Sequence record: PX880103.1
From: a phage
Strand: one strand, 5' to 3'
Length of the DNA stretch: 64,000 nucleotides
Shown here: positions 1 through 45,811 of the stretch, in pieces
Layout of the letters: each line of letters begins with the position of its first letter
Position numbering within the stretch: the first letter of the stretch is position 1
The notes under the pieces: model-generated
What the model saw: only the letters and a program-made list of their open reading frames with translations
What the model was told of the DNA's origin: nothing
The model's database searches: none
Translations under genes and position numbers: made by a program

Positions 1-361
1 CCATGGCATCTTCAACGTATTGAATCAATTCATAGAACTGTTCACGAGTTAATTGATTAACTTTATCCACACAACGACGATCATCTCGTTTTCGCATTGA
101 ACTCATACGAATAGTAGTATCATCGTCAATCATCCAGATTCGTTGACCTGCATACATATCAGTAATTGCTTTACGAGTACCGGCAATTCCGTTTACATCA
201 TCAGGAATAGTTATAATTTTAGCTCTAGACCCATAGGCATCATAATAAGCTTTTTCTTCATGTTCACGCACTACAATATGCGGTTCATAATCAGTCGGAA
301 ACATATCAAGGGCAGAAACTGCCCCTACGCGCTGATAACTTGGAATTACAAATTGAATCAT
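1..361 (-). CDS. Glycosyltransferase, 5' part only (gene runs off window start); GT-A-like DxD motif
   Basis: Hand translation of minus strand from ATG at 361: MIQFVIPSYQRVGAV...QRIWMIDDDTTIRM...; start overlaps gene 42 stop (ATGA); sits at the T4 beta-gt position but does not match T4 beta-gt sequence as remembered. Confidence 0.5.
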   Translation of the reverse strand, partial: MIQFVIPSYQRVGAVSALDMFPTDYEPHIVVREHEEKAYYDAYGSRAKIITIPDDVNGIAGTRKAITDMYAGQRIWMIDDDTTIRMSSMRKRDDRRCVDKVNQLTREQFYELIQYVEDAM

Positions 362-1098
362 TTCCACTCACCGTTATAATCTTTTTTCACAATATGAGTT
401 TCGCCAGTATTCCACCAATGATCAACCAAGTAAAAATGACGAGAATATACATGAAGACTTCCAACATTCCATATAATAGAACCTGCTTTATACTGACGAG
501 TTGAATCGCCTGCATTCAAATCAGATACTAATTTATCTAATACGTATTTTTGCCATGCATAATCATTACGGAATCCGAAGACTACGTCATTTGAACGCAT
601 GCTTACTACTGCATTGACTTTCTTATCACGAATCAGGTACTGTACTGTATTCGTACACATGAAATCTGACATACCATCTTTATTGTAGTCAAACTGCATG
701 GATGGACGAGTATAAATCATGATACCGCGTCGAGAATCAGGATTTTGACCAAGTTCAGCTAAACACATATCATACTGGGCATAGTTATCTTCTGACCAGA
801 TAGCCCAACCATAATTCGAGTTAATTTCACCTTTAGAAGATGCTACTTGTTGCCAAATCTTCGGTGTTTCACCCGGAATATCTTTAACGAACAAGCTCTT
901 AGATTTATACCATTCAAGTTCACGCTGAATGTATTCATCATTAAGAGCGCCAAAAATAAACGGTTCATCTGCTATAAATGATGCGCCAATAATTTCAATA
1001 GTTTTAACACCAGTTTTATCAACTACGAAATCTTTTTCTTTTAATGCAAGCCCCAAATGAAGACGGATTTCTTCAACTGTCATAGAGTCACTAATCAT
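358..1098 (-). CDS. 42: dCMP hydroxymethylase
   Basis: 246 aa ORF, length and sequence match T4 gp42 as remembered; synteny imm-42. Confidence 0.92.
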   Translation of the reverse strand: MISDSMTVEEIRLHLGLALKEKDFVVDKTGVKTIEIIGASFIADEPFIFGALNDEYIQRELEWYKSKSLFVKDIPGETPKIWQQVASSKGEINSNYGWAIWSEDNYAQYDMCLAELGQNPDSRRGIMIYTRPSMQFDYNKDGMSDFMCTNTVQYLIRDKKVNAVVSMRSNDVVFGFRNDYAWQKYVLDKLVSDLNAGDSTRQYKAGSIIWNVGSLHVYSRHFYLVDHWWNTGETHIVKKDYNGEWK

Positions 1099-1105
1099 TT
1101 AAACC

Positions 1106-1255
1106 TCAATTGATACATTCATATTTAACTTGTAACAGTAATAAACTCCAACCTAAAATAATAGTTGGAATCATAAGAGGAACCGTTACACTATAGTATA
1201 TACTTATTATAACCATCAAGATTAAAAGCAACACTGCTATAATTTTGCTTTTCAT
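1106..1255 (-). CDS. Small hydrophobic peptide (49 aa), translationally coupled to imm
   Basis: Hand-found ORF below track threshold; ATG overlaps imm stop (ATGA); strongly hydrophobic. Confidence 0.3.
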   Translation of the reverse strand: MKSKIIAVLLLILMVIISIYYSVTVPLMIPTIILGWSLLLLQVKYECIN

Positions 1256-9876: not shown

Positions 9877-10731
9877 TCACAATGAAGAAAATTCTTTAAC
9901 TAAAGCCTGTAATGAAGCCTCTATTGGATATCCATTCTTAACTAACATTTTTCTAAACATCACATGTTTAGGACGATTATATGATATCCACAATTCATAC
10001 AATTTATCTTTATTATCCCAATGATAGCCTTTTCGTCGAGACGCTATATGAGCTTTTCTAATCTCCGGATTTTTCCAACTAGCAGCTACTGAATTTGATA
10101 TAGCTATTTTATATTCAGGTTTTGATAAAGCAGCACGAACAGCCTTTTGGTGTTTAATTTTATTTTCTTCGTTATTAAACCATTCCCTTGAAGCCATTGA
10201 AATTTTTTGTTTTGTTTTAAAATTATTTAATCTTTCTTTGTTATCTTTCCTATTTTTTGCTACTGAAAAATATTTTAATGCCCTTTCTCTAGCAGCATTT
10301 CTATTTTGTGGATTTGAATAATACTGTTGAAGCCTTTTTGATATTGTGTCACTTACATCCTGTCTTATAAAACTATATTCAGCAGCTATTAAATCAACTT
10401 CGGCTAAAGATAAATTTTTATATGTTTTTCCTGACATCATTCTATTTAAAGCATTTAGCATTTTTCCATTTTTACCTTTTGCTAATAAGAAATGTGCTTT
10501 GAAATGATTAAAATGACTTAAATTAACTAAATTCCATGTAGATTTTAAATATTCAGGAAATATTGATTTAGGAAGCACGTGGTGTGCTTCCGTTTTACCT
10601 GGAGTTTTAACAGTTGAATTCATAGAAATAAAATTAATGTAAGACTTGGCGTCTTCTTCACTCAACGCTAATTTTTCAACTAATTCCTTTATTAAAAATT
10701 CATCATTAATATCAAGTTTAAAATTCTTCAC
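9877..10731 (-). CDS. Putative HNH homing endonuclease with NUMOD-like C-terminal DNA-binding repeats
   Basis: GTG start with AAGGAA SD; HH...NLVNL...H motif near N-terminus; repeated KxPEIRK-type modules; free-standing ORF between genes 46 and 47. Confidence 0.6.
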   Translation of the reverse strand: MKNFKLDINDEFLIKELVEKLALSEEDAKSYINFISMNSTVKTPGKTEAHHVLPKSIFPEYLKSTWNLVNLSHFNHFKAHFLLAKGKNGKMLNALNRMMSGKTYKNLSLAEVDLIAAEYSFIRQDVSDTISKRLQQYYSNPQNRNAARERALKYFSVAKNRKDNKERLNNFKTKQKISMASREWFNNEENKIKHQKAVRAALSKPEYKIAISNSVAASWKNPEIRKAHIASRRKGYHWDNKDKLYELWISYNRPKHVMFRKMLVKNGYPIEASLQALVKEFSSL

Positions 10732-11178: not shown

Positions 11179-12194
11179 TGTGTTGCCTCTACATATAACT
11201 GATTTGCATATTGAATAAGTGCTTCACGGTCAGAATCAGTGATGTCTGGAATTGCATTAATGTATTCTTCCATCAATGTCTGAAGCGATTGAACTTCAAC
11301 TTCTTCACTGTCATCTGACTCGACAGAGTTATCAATCTTTGACACAACTCGTAATGAATGCACAACTTTCTCTAGTTCAGATTCGAACTTCGTCAGATTT
11401 TTGTCTACTTCAGTTACTATAACACGTACTGATAGATTTGTAAAATCTTTATAGTCAATTTTTCCTTTAAATGGATAATGAATTCTACGATGCCAAGTAG
11501 TATTGTTTGGAATAAATTCCATTCGTTCTGTTTCTGTATCAAACATCCAGAACCCGCGGGGGTCATTCTCGTCACCTGCAGTTAGTGTCCATGGTGTCCC
11601 AATATATCTGACGTTAGCAGCCTCAGAGATAGTATGGAAGTGACCAGACCACACTTCTTTGTAAGTCTTAAGGAAATCAGGTTCAAGACCGTGAGATTTC
11701 ATTCCTTTATAAAAATAAAATCCATTCAGTTCCCAGTGACCGACACAATAAGAAGCAGATGAAGTTTTGATATGCTCAAGAATTTCACCAGTATTTTCTT
11801 CGCACATCCAAGGAATCAAATCAATCAAACATCCGTCAAAATCTACTGTAGTAGGCTTATCATATACTTTAACATTAGGATATTTAGCCAAAAGCTCAGT
11901 AGAGGCATTTGGAGTTAAAGTATTTTTAAAGTGCATATCATGGTTTCCTACAACAGTATGTAGGGTAATACCAGCATCATCAAGCATTTGAACTATTTCA
12001 CGGGCGAACTCCATAGTTTTATGCGTGATTGCTTTTCGCACATCAAAAATATCGCCGTATTGAATCCAGGTAGTAATTCCATTTTTCTTAGAATATTCTA
12101 TCGCTTGCTTAATTCCATCCAACTGAATGGATTGAACCCACTCGTCATCGGCTTTAACGCCTAAATGCCAATCACCTAAATTTAAAATTTTCAT
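11175..12194 (-). CDS. 47: Recombination endonuclease subunit (Mre11-like phosphoesterase)
   Basis: 339 aa; LGDWHLG metallophosphatase motif; T4 gp47 length. Confidence 0.9.
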   Translation of the reverse strand: MKILNLGDWHLGVKADDEWVQSIQLDGIKQAIEYSKKNGITTWIQYGDIFDVRKAITHKTMEFAREIVQMLDDAGITLHTVVGNHDMHFKNTLTPNASTELLAKYPNVKVYDKPTTVDFDGCLIDLIPWMCEENTGEILEHIKTSSASYCVGHWELNGFYFYKGMKSHGLEPDFLKTYKEVWSGHFHTISEAANVRYIGTPWTLTAGDENDPRGFWMFDTETERMEFIPNNTTWHRRIHYPFKGKIDYKDFTNLSVRVIVTEVDKNLTKFESELEKVVHSLRVVSKIDNSVESDDSEEVEVQSLQTLMEEYINAIPDITDSDREALIQYANQLYVEATQ

Positions 12195-12331
12195 ATATCA
12201 AGAACCGTCATTGAAATGCAAAATAAAATTATTGAAATAAATCCATCTGGAGTGCTAAAGAACCCAATCCAACATGCTCTAGTGAATAGATAAAATGCAA
12301 GAAAAAGTATCACATATCCAAGAAATATCAT
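12191..12331 (-). CDS. Small hydrophobic peptide (46 aa)
   Basis: Hand-found ORF; stop overlaps gene 47 ATG (ATGA). Confidence 0.3.
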   Translation of the reverse strand: MIFLGYVILFLAFYLFTRACWIGFFSTPDGFISIILFCISMTVLDI

Positions 12332-12354
12332 TATATCAAACTCTGTATAAAGCT

Positions 12355-12372
12355 AAAGGGCCGAAGCCCTTT
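12355..12372 (-). other. UUCG-tetraloop hairpin at the alpha-gt stop
   Basis: Minus strand AAAGGGCUUCGGCCCUUU. Confidence 0.4.
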
Positions 12373-13573
12373 ATTTTGTAATAATGTCAAACTGTTCTTT
12401 AAAGCAGAAGCTTGAATCTTGATGCTGATACAAAAATTCATATGCTTTTTCTCGCTCACGGTCATAAAGAGCTCGGTCAGATGACAGTTCTTTAATACGT
12501 TCAAATGTTGATTCCATATCATTTTCATCAAACCAAATGATACCGCTATCATGCGAGGTCAAAGGAGTATTATCAACACGGAATTTTAAATTTTCGCCAG
12601 TAGATTTCCAAAATACTGGAATTGTTCCACATGCACCAAGCTCGAGGTGAGTATATTCTAAAGAACGTTGTAGATATTTTTTATCCAACTTACTCAACTG
12701 ATAACCAAATCCGGATTTACTCATGCGTTCAAGCATTTCGCTATTTACATAGCGATCGAGAATTTGCGTTGGCAAATTAGGAGCAATTTTAATTTGGTCT
12801 ACTTGATGAAGACGATAATACTCGTATGGAATTCCTTTTTCTTTAATAGGAATGAACGCTGGAGAACGTTCCAGACCTTCCATAATAGTACTTAGTCCTG
12901 CAGGTTTAAGATGTTTTTCGTGAAAATCAAACATCTGATAAAAACCTTTCCATGTAGTCGTACGACCAATCCAACGGTTGACATTCATGTTAATTTCAGA
13001 AACATCTTTCCAGTAGGTTGACCGAACCTTCGCAATATCCATAGGAGGCTGAAAGTTATATACTGTCGGCGCTTCTTCAATATCATCAAACAAAGAAACT
13101 GTTTCAGGATACCATTCTTTCATCAGAACTTTATTAAAATCACCATTATCAGAATGGCTAAAAATAACATCAGCTCGACGAACAGTTTCTTCTAATCCCA
13201 AATTTCGGCGCAAAGAAAGAGAAGAATGGTCATGCTGATAAACTACAACACGAACAGAAGGTTTAATGTTATCAATAATTTTTTTATAGTTATTAATAGT
13301 GTCTTCTTCAACTGAAGTAGCAGGAACTGAATTGATAATTAGAATATCACAATCATTTACCAGCTTAAGTGTTTTATCGTATTCTTTTGCCAATAAAACC
13401 GGAATTGAAAATGATTTATAATCATGCGCACAGTTACGAGTAAATGATTTATCTTTGGCATAAACCAAAGTTACTTCATGACCATTTTTAATAAACCAAT
13501 CACGTTGCTCAAGAGAAAATTTAGTTACACCACAACCTTCAAGACCTCGAGCCATAAAAATACATACTTTCAT
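12371..13573 (-). CDS. a-gt: DNA alpha-glucosyltransferase
   Basis: 400 aa, matches T4 alpha-gt sequence as remembered. Confidence 0.9.
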   Translation of the reverse strand: MKVCIFMARGLEGCGVTKFSLEQRDWFIKNGHEVTLVYAKDKSFTRNCAHDYKSFSIPVLLAKEYDKTLKLVNDCDILIINSVPATSVEEDTINNYKKIIDNIKPSVRVVVYQHDHSSLSLRRNLGLEETVRRADVIFSHSDNGDFNKVLMKEWYPETVSLFDDIEEAPTVYNFQPPMDIAKVRSTYWKDVSEINMNVNRWIGRTTTWKGFYQMFDFHEKHLKPAGLSTIMEGLERSPAFIPIKEKGIPYEYYRLHQVDQIKIAPNLPTQILDRYVNSEMLERMSKSGFGYQLSKLDKKYLQRSLEYTHLELGACGTIPVFWKSTGENLKFRVDNTPLTSHDSGIIWFDENDMESTFERIKELSSDRALYDREREKAYEFLYQHQDSSFCFKEQFDIITK

Positions 13574-21985: not shown

Positions 21986-22283
21986 CTTCTCGGTCAAATC
22001 GGTGTTTACAATGGCGGCATTTATAACGAAGATTACTAGTCTGCCAATGGACCAATTGCACCTGTTCAGTTCCACATTCAGGGCAATTAGGAACGTTTTT
22101 AGAAGCACGTTCGCGACGTTCAACCATAACCATTACAGAATCCCAATTAACAGGAGGGCTATAATCATCACAACCATGAATCTTTCCACGCATTTCCAGA
22201 TCGTCTTCTTCACCAGCCATAATAATTTTAATTAGACTAGAATTACTTGAAGCTGCAATGTCTTCTAATAAACGCTTTTTCAT
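21969..22283 (-). CDS. Zinc-ribbon protein
   Basis: 104 aa with CPECG...CRHC pattern. Confidence 0.45.
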
Positions 22284-23206
22284 TTCAATACCTCAATAGC
22301 ATTACGTAAACCATTTGCTTTGGCGGTTAAAGCCTTGAGAACTTTAGTATGCTCTTCAATTTGTTTTTCAACTTCAACCAAACGAGCATTGAGATATTCG
22401 CGTTCTTCTTTCATAGTATCATTCCCATGATTGGATTTTGGCGTAGGTTTAAATTCACTAGGGTCCTTTAACTTAATAACAAATTTAGTTTCAAACAGTG
22501 AAAGACCATAATTCGTATTATCATCAAAGGATTTGACTACATCCATATCAGATAATAACACGCGCAAATTATAAGCCAAAGAACTAATAGTTTCATTGTG
22601 TTTATTAGCTTCGCGGGGTTTCATATACGGAAGATTTTTATATATCTCGTGCGGAGCGCAAATTATAATTGACAATTCAAATTGCCCATTCTGGGACGAT
22701 GGAGTGAATTTAGCTGTAACCCAGTCTTTTACATTCACATTAATAGTACGGTTATCACCATGACAAAACAGTCTACGAGAATGCTTAAAAAGCATATTCA
22801 CGTTATTATTGAATTCGTGTGAAAATTCACTAGCAAATTTTTCTTTACTATCTTTAGAAAACCATTCTTCTAAATAAGTTCTTTTCACGTCGTTAATAAT
22901 ATTAAATGTAACAACACTAGCATTTGATACATTAGTCTCAATGTAGCTTGGATACATAAATTTTTTAACATTATTAACAGCTATCACAGAAGATAGTAAT
23001 CGGGAACGTTTGAACCACTCGAGCAAAGAACCAAGAGAATGTGAATACGCATTTTGTGTATCTTTACAAATATGGTTTTCCCATCCAATATAGTCTAAAA
23101 AATCACGAAGAATATTATTGATTACTGCTCTGTGTCCTATCTGATAATTACGATGTTTAGTAATAAGACTGTCAAAATAATCAATATAATGTTTACGAGT
23201 TTTCAT
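22280..23206 (-). CDS. Paralog family member A (N-terminal globular region, C-terminal coiled coil)
   Basis: 308 aa; heptad-like C-terminus [31 protein letters not shown]; same architecture as the next three ORFs. Confidence 0.55.
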   Translation of the reverse strand: MKTRKHYIDYFDSLITKHRNYQIGHRAVINNILRDFLDYIGWENHICKDTQNAYSHSLGSLLEWFKRSRLLSSVIAVNNVKKFMYPSYIETNVSNASVVTFNIINDVKRTYLEEWFSKDSKEKFASEFSHEFNNNVNMLFKHSRRLFCHGDNRTINVNVKDWVTAKFTPSSQNGQFELSIIICAPHEIYKNLPYMKPREANKHNETISSLAYNLRVLLSDMDVVKSFDDNTNYGLSLFETKFVIKLKDPSEFKPTPKSNHGNDTMKEEREYLNARLVEVEKQIEEHTKVLKALTAKANGLRNAIEVLK

Positions 23207-23257
23207 GTTCTTCTCACTTGTTAATGATTTATACTCCGAGCCATCCTTGGCTTTAAA

Positions 23258-24259
23258 TTACTTAATTAACTGTAAAGCTTGTTCAAGACGATCCAAGCGA
23301 TTAACAGATTCTTCCCAAATCCTTTTAGCCTGCTCATATTCTTTCTGCGCTTTATTAGAAATTTCTAGAACTTCTTTATAAGCTTTTTCTAGTGCAATAA
23401 CTTCTGGACGAATTTCTACCGATTCAGGTGAATCGTCAAGACATTCCATTAGTTCCTCAAGGGTAGTTTCTTCTTTAGGAGTATTCACAATTTCATCACA
23501 TTTTTGTTGATAAATTTCTTTATCAGTAGGTGAGTACGCGCACTTTACTTCACGAAGACTAATTACAATTTTATATCCTTCCCAACCGCATATATTCTTA
23601 AAAGGATATGTATGAATATTTTCTACTGTTTCCATACAAAGTAATGCGGTCTCTAATTGACGAGTTATAGTGCTAGCAATTGAGAAAAATTTATTAATAT
23701 TCTTTTGGTTAGTTTCTGGTGTAAAAAATCCATAATTCACAAAAATAGCTACTTTATTTTTATCAAGCTCATATTCTTTTATGATAATCATATCAGAAGC
23801 CAAAGGATGAATTTGACGATAATCGCCATAACATAATTTAGAAGCTGATTTTAGAATTTGCTTCTTAAAAAGTCTGAAATTACTAATCCAACGACGAGTA
23901 AAAATATTCTCAGGGTCTTCTTTGACATTAAGATGATAAGAATTAACATCACCGAACCAATTATATCCTACTACATCTTTGGTTCGTTTAATTTCTTTCC
24001 CAAAATTACCAAGAATATCCCGATTAACCAAATATGAAAGAAGACGAGACTCTTTAAAGGTTTTCTTGATATTATCTTTATCTACACGGCTAGAAATTTT
24101 ACGAATTTCATGAATAAATTTAGCAGAAGAAACAATACCTGCATCAACACTATTGAGCCATTGATTGATAATAGAAAGAACGCTATTTTGGCCAAACATC
24201 GGTATAGCTTTATCATCAATAACGCTATTGAATGATTTGATATATTCGTTACGAGTCAT
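23258..24259 (-). CDS. Paralog family member B
   Basis: Start at internal MTRNEY; segment WISNFRLFKKQILKSASKL aligns with member C; C-terminal coiled coil. Confidence 0.55.
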   Translation of the reverse strand: MTRNEYIKSFNSVIDDKAIPMFGQNSVLSIINQWLNSVDAGIVSSAKFIHEIRKISSRVDKDNIKKTFKESRLLSYLVNRDILGNFGKEIKRTKDVVGYNWFGDVNSYHLNVKEDPENIFTRRWISNFRLFKKQILKSASKLCYGDYRQIHPLASDMIIIKEYELDKNKVAIFVNYGFFTPETNQKNINKFFSIASTITRQLETALLCMETVENIHTYPFKNICGWEGYKIVISLREVKCAYSPTDKEIYQQKCDEIVNTPKEETTLEELMECLDDSPESVEIRPEVIALEKAYKEVLEISNKAQKEYEQAKRIWEESVNRLDRLEQALQLIK

Positions 24260-24316
24260 AATAATCTCCTCAGTAGAAAGTAAGAACATTATACCACATC
24301 CTTGTGGCAAAGTAAA

Positions 24317-27691: not shown

Positions 27692-28660
27692 TTATTTCAG
27701 AAGAGTAACCTCAGCAATTTCTTCCCAACCGTTTTTGTCGGTCATAATAAAGTCAGCAAGATAAAGAGCGGTACGCAGTGAAACATTGCGTAAACGGTTA
27801 ACATTGACTTTCATCCATGATAATGCTTTATAAGTTTCTTCATCAGAAAGACCGCGCTTTTGCATCATGTCGGTTGAAAGAATAACATCTTCAACCCTGA
27901 CCATAATTTCTTCATTAGTGTGAACACCCAAATCTAAATAAACTGAGCGGGACACTAATGCTTGTAAATGTGGAGCAAGTTTAGTACCACGGTCTAATTC
28001 GCGGTCAATATCAACGTTTGTGATAAAAACAATTGTTCCTTTAAATTCAAACTCACGATCAATGCCTTTTTCTTCTAAGTAAGAAGATGCAGTGCTCCAG
28101 CAGACTTTACGGGTCTCTCCAGTGTCCAGAGCAGCTTTCAGAAGATTAAGAATGTCCATATCAGAAAAAACATCCACATCATCAATCAAAAGGACAGAAT
28201 TCTCTTCACGATTATTCCAAAGCTGCTCATAAAGACCGATACCAGAGATTTTACCATTAATGCTTTTATACTCAATGTATCCAATATCATTTGCTTTATT
28301 CAAAGCTTTATCTAAAGAATACGTTTTACCAATACCCGCCGCACCAGAGATAATTAATGAACGAATATTTCCGTTAATAATACCATTCGTCATCATTCCC
28401 ATAACATTAAATCTTTTATTAATGCGGGTTTTCATATCTTCATATGATTCTTTAACTTCTTCAACTTTTACACCATCATATGAAATGTCTGATTTATAAA
28501 CCCAAACACCGCGACGTTTACCATCAATTTCAACAAAAACTTTACCGTCTCCTTGTGCATCTACCGGAGCATTATCTGGGAACCATTCGCCTAAGAGTTC
28601 AAAGGTTCCAGAGATTTCTTTACCGAAGTAGATACCCTTATTGATAGTTACAGTTTTCAT
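27692..28660 (-). CDS. P-loop NTPase (AAA-like ATPase) with N-terminal extra domain
   Basis: Walker A GAAGIGKTY, Walker B VLLIDDVD; start moved to MKTVTINK with GGAGAA SD. Confidence 0.6.
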   Translation of the reverse strand: MKTVTINKGIYFGKEISGTFELLGEWFPDNAPVDAQGDGKVFVEIDGKRRGVWVYKSDISYDGVKVEEVKESYEDMKTRINKRFNVMGMMTNGIINGNIRSLIISGAAGIGKTYSLDKALNKANDIGYIEYKSINGKISGIGLYEQLWNNREENSVLLIDDVDVFSDMDILNLLKAALDTGETRKVCWSTASSYLEEKGIDREFEFKGTIVFITNVDIDRELDRGTKLAPHLQALVSRSVYLDLGVHTNEEIMVRVEDVILSTDMMQKRGLSDEETYKALSWMKVNVNRLRNVSLRTALYLADFIMTDKNGWEEIAEVTLLK

Positions 28661-28684
28661 TTTATTCTCCAAATCCGTATCAGT

Positions 28685-28725
28685 TGATAGTTGTATAGTA
28701 CCATAAAGCTTTATGCTTGTAAACA
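28685..28725 (-). promoter_or_regulatory. Early promoter
   Basis: Same motif, upstream of the P-loop ATPase gene. Confidence 0.6.
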
Positions 28726-28740
28726 ACTTTGTGAAAAATT

Positions 28741-28772
28741 TTTGAAATAAAAAAGGGAGCCCGAAGGCTCCC
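28741..28772 (-). terminator. Rho-independent terminator after the nucleotidyltransferase gene
   Basis: Minus strand GGGAGCCUUCGGGCUCCC then UUUUUUAUUUC. Confidence 0.55.
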
Positions 28773-28774
28773 TA

Positions 28775-29788
28775 TCATTTATAATAACTTCGATGGTTTT
28801 CAAGATAGACCTTCTCAAGGAAGTCATCCCAGAAACTCATGTCTACTTTTTGCTGCATACCGTTCTTAGAAGCTTCAGTAGATGCTGCTTCTACTTGATC
28901 GACCACATCTTCCAAAAACTCTTGAACCGTTTTAAATGGATGTTTACCCAACTTCACGTCGAGAATAAATGGAGCATCTTGGAGTGGATAAATCAAGTCG
29001 CCAGTTTTGTAAATTTCCAATAGTTGGAGTCCACCACGACAAGCATGGCTCAGAGCTTTCCAGTCAATACCTTCGTTGGCTTCGGCCTTACGAGCACGTT
29101 CACCATATTCAGCATCTAATTTGTTCAGTGACTGCTTAAGCTCAATAAGAGAAAGCGTTGTCTGATATTTACGACCCAACACAGTGTAGAACGTTTGTGG
29201 GCCTGTTTTCTCATGATTATGGAACACCCATTCACAGAATTCGTTTTCTGGAAGACGATGCTTAATATCTTCAACTTTAGTGCGACGCTGCTTAATAGAA
29301 CCATCTTCTTGGTAATCAACCCATTGCTCAGGGATTTGATTAACTACTTTCAATACATCACGTAATGCAGCCAAACGAGAACCCTTGACACCGTATTTAG
29401 AAGCTTGCTTGCGGACATATCCTAAATATGATTTCATGTTAGTCGTATAAAAACGAGAACGGTTGTCTTGAATAAACTTCCACACATCAGGCAAATCAGA
29501 TTTAACCACTAGTTCAGGTGGAGTGTGAAGCATATCTAATGCTACGGTTTCACCATCTGCTGCTAATTTAAAGAAATATTTAAGACTGTATAGTTCATGG
29601 TCAATATCATCTTTAGTGTTTTTAGATGATGTGTTGTTAGTGTTTTTACTCATGTGCTCTTTGACATTTCCGATAAGAATATCACGAGCAGGAGGAACAA
29701 AAATTTCTTTAAAATCTACATCAGATTCTGGGGTAGAAGTTCCATAAAGATGACTACCAAAATAGCTTTTCATTACTGTTTTCATCAT
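28775..29788 (-). CDS. Putative Pol-beta-fold nucleotidyltransferase
   Basis: N-terminal GS-x10-DVD signature (FGSHLYGTSTPESDVDF), then an alpha-helical region; 337 aa. Confidence 0.5.
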   Translation of the reverse strand: MMKTVMKSYFGSHLYGTSTPESDVDFKEIFVPPARDILIGNVKEHMSKNTNNTSSKNTKDDIDHELYSLKYFFKLAADGETVALDMLHTPPELVVKSDLPDVWKFIQDNRSRFYTTNMKSYLGYVRKQASKYGVKGSRLAALRDVLKVVNQIPEQWVDYQEDGSIKQRRTKVEDIKHRLPENEFCEWVFHNHEKTGPQTFYTVLGRKYQTTLSLIELKQSLNKLDAEYGERARKAEANEGIDWKALSHACRGGLQLLEIYKTGDLIYPLQDAPFILDVKLGKHPFKTVQEFLEDVVDQVEAASTEASKNGMQQKVDMSFWDDFLEKVYLENHRSYYK

Positions 29789-44601: not shown

Positions 44602-44677
44602 TGGTCGAGGCAGTAGGGATCGAACCTACGACCTAGGACTTAGAAGGTCCTTGCTCTTCCTTCTGAGCTATGCCTCG
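44602..44677 (-). tRNA. tRNA-Arg (anticodon UCU)
   Basis: Hand fold: 7 bp acceptor CGAGGCA/UGCCUCG, anticodon loop CUUCUAA, T-loop UUCGAUC, encoded CCA; 76 nt. Confidence 0.85.
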
Positions 44678-44681
44678 GATT

Positions 44682-44756
44682 TGGCGGACGTGATAGGATT
44701 CGAACCTATAACCAATCGCTTAACAGGCGATCGCTCTGCCATTGAGCTACACATCC
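44682..44756 (-). tRNA. tRNA-Asn (anticodon GUU)
   Basis: Hand fold: acceptor GGAUGUG/CACGUCC, anticodon stem AUCGC/GCGAU with loop CUGUUAA, T-loop UUCGAAU, encoded CCA; 75 nt. Confidence 0.75.
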
Positions 44757-44760
44757 AAAT

Positions 44761-44847
44761 TGGTGGGGAGTGATGGAGTCGAACCACCCGAGTCGCAATG
44801 ACAATGGATTTACAGTCCACACCGCTACCTCTACGGGATAACTCCCC
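44761..44847 (-). tRNA. tRNA-Tyr (anticodon GUA), class II with long variable arm
   Basis: Acceptor GGGGAGU/ACUCCCC, anticodon loop CUGUAAA, variable arm resembles bacterial tRNA-Tyr, encoded CCA; 87 nt. Confidence 0.75.
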
Positions 44848-44856
44848 AAATTAATT

Positions 44857-44931
44857 TGGTGGCCCTGGGTGGAATTGAACCACCATCTGGCGATTATGAG
44901 TCGCTTGCTTGAACCTTCCAGCTACAGGGCC
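44857..44931 (-). tRNA. tRNA with anticodon CAU (Met, or Ile if lysidine-modified)
   Basis: Acceptor GGCCCUG/CAGGGCC, anticodon loop CUCAUAA, T-loop UUCAAUU, encoded CCA; 75 nt. Confidence 0.8.
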
Positions 44932-44939
44932 AAATTTTC

Positions 44940-45425
44940 TTATTTTATGTAATATTTATTTAAAAACTTTCTAGCTTGAGTATGGCTAACATTTATAGCG
45001 TTTGCATAATTTTTAATAAAACCTCGTTCATCCATATTAAAATTTTCTAATATTTTTAATCGTCTAGTTATCTCATCTTGACTTAAGGTACTTGCATTAT
45101 TTTTAGAAATTTTTTCTAAGGACTGTGCCGAGTGTTTTCGACCATTAAAATTAAAATTTTTAGATTTTGGAGGAAATCTAGCATTTAATCTCGCATCTTT
45201 TGTATTTTGATTATTAGTTGCGCAATATATGTTATTTAATGAATATGGTCCTTTATCGCCGAAACGGCACATGCAGTATTCATGACCCTTTCTTCCACGC
45301 TTATCATAATTTCCCGTTGATTTCCACCAATGCAACCATTCATCAAAAGTTAAATTCCATTCAATGTTTCTACGTATAGCAGAATTCCGCTGAGAAATAT
45401 ATTTTGCATAATCTTCTTTCATCAC
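44940..45425 (-). CDS. Putative HNH-family homing endonuclease-like protein embedded in the tRNA cluster
   Basis: 161 aa; GHEYCMCRFGDKGPYSLNNIYCATNNQN cysteine/Asn-rich nuclease-like core plus C-terminal helix-turn-helix-like tail; free-standing between tRNA sub-clusters. Confidence 0.45.
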   Translation of the reverse strand: MMKEDYAKYISQRNSAIRRNIEWNLTFDEWLHWWKSTGNYDKRGRKGHEYCMCRFGDKGPYSLNNIYCATNNQNTKDARLNARFPPKSKNFNFNGRKHSAQSLEKISKNNASTLSQDEITRRLKILENFNMDERGFIKNYANAINVSHTQARKFLNKYYIK

Positions 45426-45469
45426 AAATTTCTCTACTTATTCAATACACTGAGCTAAATCAGCAAAAC

Positions 45470-45559
45470 TGGCGGAGGCGATAGGATTTGAACCTATGAG
45501 TCGCCGGAGCGACTGCCGGTTTTCAAGACCGGTGCATTAAACCACTCTGCCACGCCTCC
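45470..45559 (-). tRNA. tRNA-Ser (anticodon UGA), class II
   Basis: Acceptor GGAGGCG/CGCCUCC, anticodon stem CCGGU/ACCGG with loop CUUGAAA, long variable arm, encoded CCA; 90 nt. Confidence 0.85.
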
Positions 45560-45561
45560 AG

Positions 45562-45635
45562 TCTCCGTGGCAGGATTTGAACCTACGACATTCTGCTCCC
45601 AAAGCAGACGCTCTACCAAACTGAGCTACACGGAG
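45562..45635 (-). tRNA. tRNA-Pro (anticodon UGG), CCA not encoded
   Basis: Acceptor CUCCGUG/CACGGAG, anticodon stem UCUGC/GCAGA with loop UUUGGGA, T-loop UUCAAAU; 74 nt. Confidence 0.8.
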
Positions 45636-45645
45636 TAAATTAAAT

Positions 45646-45719
<74 letters not shown>

Positions 45720-45724
45720 AAATT

Positions 45725-45811
45725 TGGTGCGAGAAGTGGGACTCGAACCCACAAGGAAATCATTCCGCAGCATTTTAAGTGCTGTGCCTTTACCAATTTG
45801 ACCATTCTCGC
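45725..45811 (-). tRNA. tRNA-Leu (anticodon UAA), class II
   Basis: Sequence GCGAGAAUGGUCAAAUUGGUAAAGGCACAGCACUUAAAAUGCUG...CACUUCUCGCACCA; matches T4 tRNA-Leu as remembered; 87 nt. Confidence 0.85.

Follow-up and report, generated by a model that had tools for sequence, protein, structure and literature searches.

The position directly downstream of gene 42, where phage T4 carries its beta-glucosyltransferase gene (b-gt), is held in the 64,000-nucleotide stretch of phage DNA analysed here (hereafter the window) by an open reading frame (ORF) that is cut by the left edge of the window. This raises the question of which enzyme is encoded at the beta-gt locus of this phage and which sugars its DNA is likely to carry. 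An initial annotation, made from the sequence without database searches, had noted a GT-A-like DxD motif in the partial ORF, judged the product to be unlike T4 beta-gt and, given the presence of an alpha-glucosyltransferase gene (alpha-gt) in the same window, proposed a T2/T6-like glucosylation pattern that includes an enzyme adding a second sugar. The results described below bear out this reading. Judged from sequence comparison, the ORF most probably (probability of roughly 0.93) is the N-terminal part of the gene for the T2/T6-type beta-glucosyl-HMC-alpha-glucosyltransferase (ba-gt, also denoted g-gt, ggt or TAGT) of a T2-like Tequatrovirus.

The truncated gene and its genomic context

The ba-gt fragment occupies positions 2..361 on the minus strand; it starts with an ATG at 361..359 and continues for 120 stop-free codons up to the window edge, base 1 of the window being the first base of codon 121. 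The orthologues are 280 amino acids long, that is, 120 of about 280 codons lie inside the window and the C-terminal 160 codons are located beyond its edge. The start codon overlaps the stop codon of gene 42 within the tetranucleotide ATGA (358..361), and a Shine-Dalgarno-like sequence, GGTGAG, is found a few bases upstream of the ATG. The overlap suggests that ba-gt may be co-transcribed and translationally coupled with gene 42.

The 120-residue fragment is identical to the N-terminal portion of a 280-amino-acid protein of Escherichia phage KarlGJung that is annotated as ‘beta-alpha-glucosyltransferase’ (100% identity) and, over all 120 residues, shares 99% identity (119/120) with the T2 enzyme and 97% with the T6 enzyme (RefSeq protein). 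Both family models that describe these proteins recognize the fragment: PHROG 842, ‘beta-glucosyl-HMC-alpha-glucosyltransferase’, with E=4.3e-41, and the Pfam family of TET-associated glycosyltransferases (TAGT, PF20691) with a score of 31.1 bits, the curated cut-off being 27.5 (E=2.8e-7). The latter is a generic model that matches the fragment weakly but above the gathering cut-off, and it is also present in the full-length ba-gt orthologues. The TET-linked members of PF20691, found in unrelated phages, act on 5hmC that results from TET oxidation of 5mC. A search of the protein database with the 120-residue fragment retrieved 4 proteins, mostly fragments, and the same search with the full-length KarlGJung orthologue retrieved 11.

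Gene 42 (358..1098, minus strand) encodes a dCMP hydroxymethylase, the enzyme that makes the hydroxymethyl-dCMP precursor, as indicated by the match to Pfam Thymidylat_synt (E=1.2e-15), the assignment to PHROG 160, the identity of the product to T4 gp42 (96%) and to the T2 protein (99.6%), and the dCMP hydroxymethylase annotation of the homologues in related phages. In KarlGJung, T2 and T6 alike, gene 42 is followed by ba-gt and then by uvsX. The alpha-gt gene reported in the initial annotation at 12371..13573 (minus strand) is a complete ORF for a DNA alpha-glucosyltransferase that matches the Pfam AGT family (PF11440) over the entire model (positions 1-355 of 355; 786 bits, E=3.9e-237) and is 99% identical to the T2 protein, 92% to that of T6 and 91% to that of T4. 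Between gene 42 and alpha-gt, the usual T-even replication genes are found, and positions 1-25000 of the window are 97.8% identical to phage T2. A second glycosyltransferase was not found elsewhere in the 64-kb window by tblastn with T4 b-gt, T4 a-gt and ba-gt as queries. The assignment of the fragment to ba-gt is supported by its near-identity to the enzymes of T2 and T6, the family models, the conserved gene order, the DDD motif discussed below, the paired alpha-gt and the T2-like context, along with the lack of a beta-gt in the window.

The DxD motif and the predicted fold

The motif singled out in the initial annotation, IWMIDDD (119..139, minus strand), corresponds to residues 75-81 of the ba-gt fragment and consists of a beta strand followed by a DxD signature (DDD). 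The triplet by itself carries no weight as evidence; nevertheless, a shallow alignment of 10 database homologues (33-98% identity) shows no variation at D79, D80 and D81, even at 33% identity. In the structural model of a full-length orthologue (P0005) that is 98% identical to the fragment, the DDD triplet comes immediately after a stretch predicted to be a beta strand (residues 74-77), and it is at this point that the DxD is located in GT-A enzymes. This is a model of medium confidence (mean pLDDT 77, pTM 0.78), with values of 85-95 for the first 80 residues. By analogy with other enzymes of this fold, DDD is presumed to be the site that binds a divalent metal together with the diphosphate of the UDP-sugar, and ba-gt presumably is metal-dependent.

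The structural neighbors of the P0005 model are GT2 and other GT-A enzymes (9jma, TarP, TarS and cellulose synthase), the sequence identity between ba-gt and the solved GT2 enzymes being 9-18%. When the family profile was compared with solved structures, no match was significant; the best one was to the GT2 glucosyltransferase 9jma (E=0.26), a weak alignment in which the LDDDD of 9jma is placed opposite the WMIDDD of ba-gt. The other profile matches to solved structures were to Toll-like receptor 4 and were rejected as chance hits. The ba-gt family appears to include no member with a solved structure. Taken as a prediction, the model supports a GT-A fold with a DxD motif for ba-gt, unlike the GT-B fold of beta-gt, and the T6 TAGT has been described as a GT-A enzyme that is a sister to GT2 (PMC13216743, 2026).

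The proposed glucosylation pathway

The enzyme roles discussed in this section have been established in T2 and T6, and their assignment to the present phage draws on the near-identity of the proteins. In the proposed pathway, gp42 would produce hydroxymethyl-dCMP that replaces dCMP in the phage DNA. After replication, alpha-gt, a GT-B fold enzyme, would transfer glucose from UDP-glucose onto about 75% of the hydroxymethylcytosine (hmC) in alpha linkage, and the resulting alpha-glucosyl-hmC would be the acceptor for ba-gt. The latter enzyme would then extend part of the alpha-glucosyl-hmC by another glucose, attached in beta-1,6 linkage, yielding gentiobiosyl-hmC, the product that has been assigned to ba-gt of T2 and T6 (PMC6024577; PMC13216743). 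Because a beta linkage would be made from UDP-alpha-glucose, ba-gt should be an inverting enzyme, and such a mechanism would fit a GT2-like GT-A enzyme.

Under this scheme, the phage DNA is expected to contain bare hmC, alpha-glucosyl-hmC and gentiobiosyl-hmC and to lack beta-glucosyl-hmC. HPLC/MS analysis of Tequatroviruses that encode alpha-GT and TAGT and lack beta-GT revealed alpha-glucosyl-methyl-dC along with alpha-gentiobiosyl-methyl-dC, whereas the beta-glucosyl form was not detected (PMC13390438). The share of hmC that carries gentiobiose is 5% in T2 and 72% in T6 (PMC6024577; bioRxiv 10.64898/2026.02.25.707755; PMC13216743). Given this approximately 14-fold gap between phages with nearly identical enzymes, which differ at few residues, the ratio of mono- to di-glucosylated hmC is not predictable from sequence, and neither a T2-like (5%) nor a T6-like (72%) gentiobiosyl level can be assigned to the present phage.

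The expected mixture of sugars would alter the susceptibility of the phage to defenses that read DNA sugars, such as Brig1, BapA and GmrSD-type enzymes. The function of the T6 ba-gt has been demonstrated genetically by deletion (PMC11078745; bioRxiv 10.64898/2026.02.25.707755): the mutant DNA contains only alpha-glucosyl-hmC, and the sensitivity of the phage to the Brig1 glycosylase is increased (PMC11078745). Furthermore, the glucose of gentiobiosyl-hmC cannot be removed by BapA (bioRxiv 10.64898/2026.02.25.707755). The effect of such a glucosylation pattern on sensitivity to modification-dependent restriction, suggested in the initial annotation, is documented for the T6 ba-gt deletion challenged with Brig1 and for BapA.

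Comparison with the T2 and T6 enzymes and alternative interpretations

The ba-gt gene of T2 (AP018813, 22282..23124; 280 amino acids) and the gene described here share the ATGA overlap, the flanking genes and the DDD. A single substitution separates the two proteins within the fragment (R11 in the window copy, H in T2), and the respective nucleotide sequences are 95% identical over 360 bases. The T6 enzyme (NC_054907, YP_010067197.1; MH550421, AXN58083.1) is encoded at the same locus and belongs to the same family; the RefSeq protein differs from the window copy by Y40N, D55G and R106H as well as by a one-residue deletion. This comparison was made with NC_054907 because the gene in MH550421 contains a stop at codon 10.

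Such high similarity bears on the possibility that the fragment belongs to a TAGT-family enzyme of another specificity, one that would use a different sugar donor, form a different linkage or act on bare hmC. The TAGT family is indeed diverse. Many phages combine a TAGT with a beta-GT or encode a TAGT and neither alpha-GT nor beta-GT (PMC13216743), and in phages of Enterobacter and Proteus, homologues that are 60-64% identical to the ba-gt fragment adjoin a homologue of beta-gt. However, with only one of the 120 residues different from the T2 enzyme, complete identity to the KarlGJung ba-gt, and a paired alpha-gt that is 99% identical to that of T2, a change of specificity is very unlikely.

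It is equally unlikely that ba-gt has decayed to a pseudogene or become an inactive allele in this phage, which would leave the DNA with hmC and alpha-glucosyl-hmC only. This possibility arises from the location of the C-terminal codons outside the window and from the apparent lesions in the genes of laboratory relatives, namely the two T6 records. In MH550421 (locus 12138..12980, minus strand), codon 10 is TAG and the CDS is annotated from Met20, so that the first beta strand would be lost; in NC_054907/AP018814 (locus 339..1178, minus strand), an in-frame 3-base deletion removes one Asp of the DDD (IWMIDDTT). Given that T6 is the reference for the 72% content of gentiobiosyl-hmC, either the stocks or records have been altered or the enzyme tolerates these lesions. 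Neither lesion is present in the window copy, in which all 120 visible codons are intact, with a conserved start and the full DDD, and most of the relatives encode the full 280 amino acids (the cluster represented by P0005 consists of 485 member sequences).

There is also a comparably slight chance that the C-terminal part of the protein is mosaic with respect to T2 and T6, which could alter the specificity for the acceptor or the linkage, or shift the degree of di-glucosylation considerably. If that were the case, a natural allele close to that of T2 could help to identify the determinant of the difference between 5% and 72% gentiobiosylation.

Relationship to the T4 beta-glucosyltransferase

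The T4 b-gt (NP_049658.1, PF09198) occupies the position downstream of gene 42 as ba-gt does here, the place held by ba-gt in KarlGJung, T2 and T6 being taken in T4 by beta-gt and then segA. Both enzymes use UDP-glucose as the donor and form a beta linkage on a modified cytosine in DNA. The acceptors are, however, different (bare hmC for b-gt and alpha-glucosyl-hmC for ba-gt), and the two proteins are unrelated: b-gt consists of 351 amino acids and adopts the GT-B fold, whereas the ba-gt orthologues consist of 280 amino acids and adopt the GT-A fold. In agreement with the initial annotation, which found the fragment unlike T4 beta-gt, BLASTP comparison with this protein produced chance-level matches only, both for the fragment (E=0.97) and for the full-length KarlGJung orthologue (E=2.2), so that comparison with a complete orthologue gave no reason to revise that reading. 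The fragment did not match the Pfam beta-gt family (PF09198), and tblastn revealed no homologue of T4 beta-gt in the whole 64-kb window (best E=7.2).

The view that the fragment is a T4-type beta-glucosyltransferase that has diverged and produces beta-glucosyl-hmC is supported by nothing other than the position of the locus and the misleading labels (‘b-gt’, ‘beta-glucosyltransferase’) in some GenBank records and, given the lack of sequence similarity and of a match to the Pfam family as well as a GT-A fold in place of the two Rossmann domains of GT-B (PMC13216743), is ruled out for practical purposes.

Distribution and annotation of ba-gt

The T2/T6-type ba-gt is widespread. When the fragment was compared by tblastn with 50,697 phage records, 687 of these contained a match, 475 of them at 90% identity or more, whereas T4-type beta-gt at 90% identity or more was present in 29 records of the same collection. 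Most phages that encode DNA glucosyltransferases pair alpha-GT or beta-GT with TAGT, and the combination of alpha-GT and beta-GT was detected in only 6 of 753 surveyed genomes, those of T4 and its closest relatives (PMC13216743). With regard to significance, the initial annotation needs one correction: the pairing of alpha-gt with a second-sugar enzyme is not unusual, as most T4-like coliphages have it, and it is the alpha-gt plus beta-gt combination of T4 that is the rarity. The ba-gt gene, its family, fold and position and its pairing with alpha-gt have all been published already, and the finding carries little weight as a discovery.

The value of the assignment lies in annotation, in that the phage can be labeled as one with alpha-glucosyl and gentiobiosyl hmC, and without beta-glucosyl hmC. 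Such a sugar label predicts the behavior of a phage towards Brig1, BapA and enzymes of the GmrSD/BrxU type. The labels that are given to ba-gt in GenBank include ‘b-gt’, ‘beta-glucosyltransferase’, ‘alpha-glucosyl-transferase’, ‘glycosyltransferase like family 2’ and ‘hypothetical protein’, and because many records are mislabeled in this manner, the correct label is worth propagating. Errors of annotation affect the related genes as well: the true T4-type b-gt of phage RB55 is labeled ‘beta-glucosyl-HMC-alpha-glucosyl-transferase’, and in the T2 record AP018813, alpha-gt is labeled ‘N-acetylmuramoyl-L-alanine amidase’.

Other features of the window

Several additional features of the window deserve a brief description. 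Between genes 46 and 46.1, an ORF of 284 amino acids with a GTG start (9877..10731, minus strand) encodes an HNH-type homing endonuclease, identified through PHROG 655 (E=3.5e-45) with no Pfam match. T4 has no such gene at the same position, T6 carries an intact copy (98.9% nucleotide identity), and in the T2 record AP018813 the gene is disrupted by a 1-base frameshift.

A cluster of 8 tRNA genes (44602..45811, minus strand) consists of Arg(tct), Asn(gtt), Tyr(gta) and a tRNA with the CAT anticodon, followed by Ser, Pro, Gly and Leu. The tRNA with the CAT anticodon is called as Met and probably is an Ile tRNA; between this gene and the Ser tRNA, there is an ORF of 161 amino acids (44940..45425, PHROG 16521) with no assigned function. 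The T4 set of tRNAs includes Thr and Gln, whereas Asn and Tyr are not known to be part of it.

Also on the minus strand (region 22280..24310), there is a pair of neighboring paralogous ORFs, 308 and 350 amino acids in length, both of which match PHROG 1435, a family with no known function. In the region 27692..29788 (minus strand), there are two further ORFs, one of 344 amino acids for a P-loop/STAND-like NTPase, with weak matches to AAA and nSTAND Pfam families that all fall below the cut-offs, and one of 337 amino acids for an RlaP-type nucleotidyltransferase (Pfam PF10127, E=1.7e-11). The part of the genome that holds the PHROG 1435 pair, the NTPase and the RlaP-type ORF presumably corresponds to the nrdC.x region of T4.
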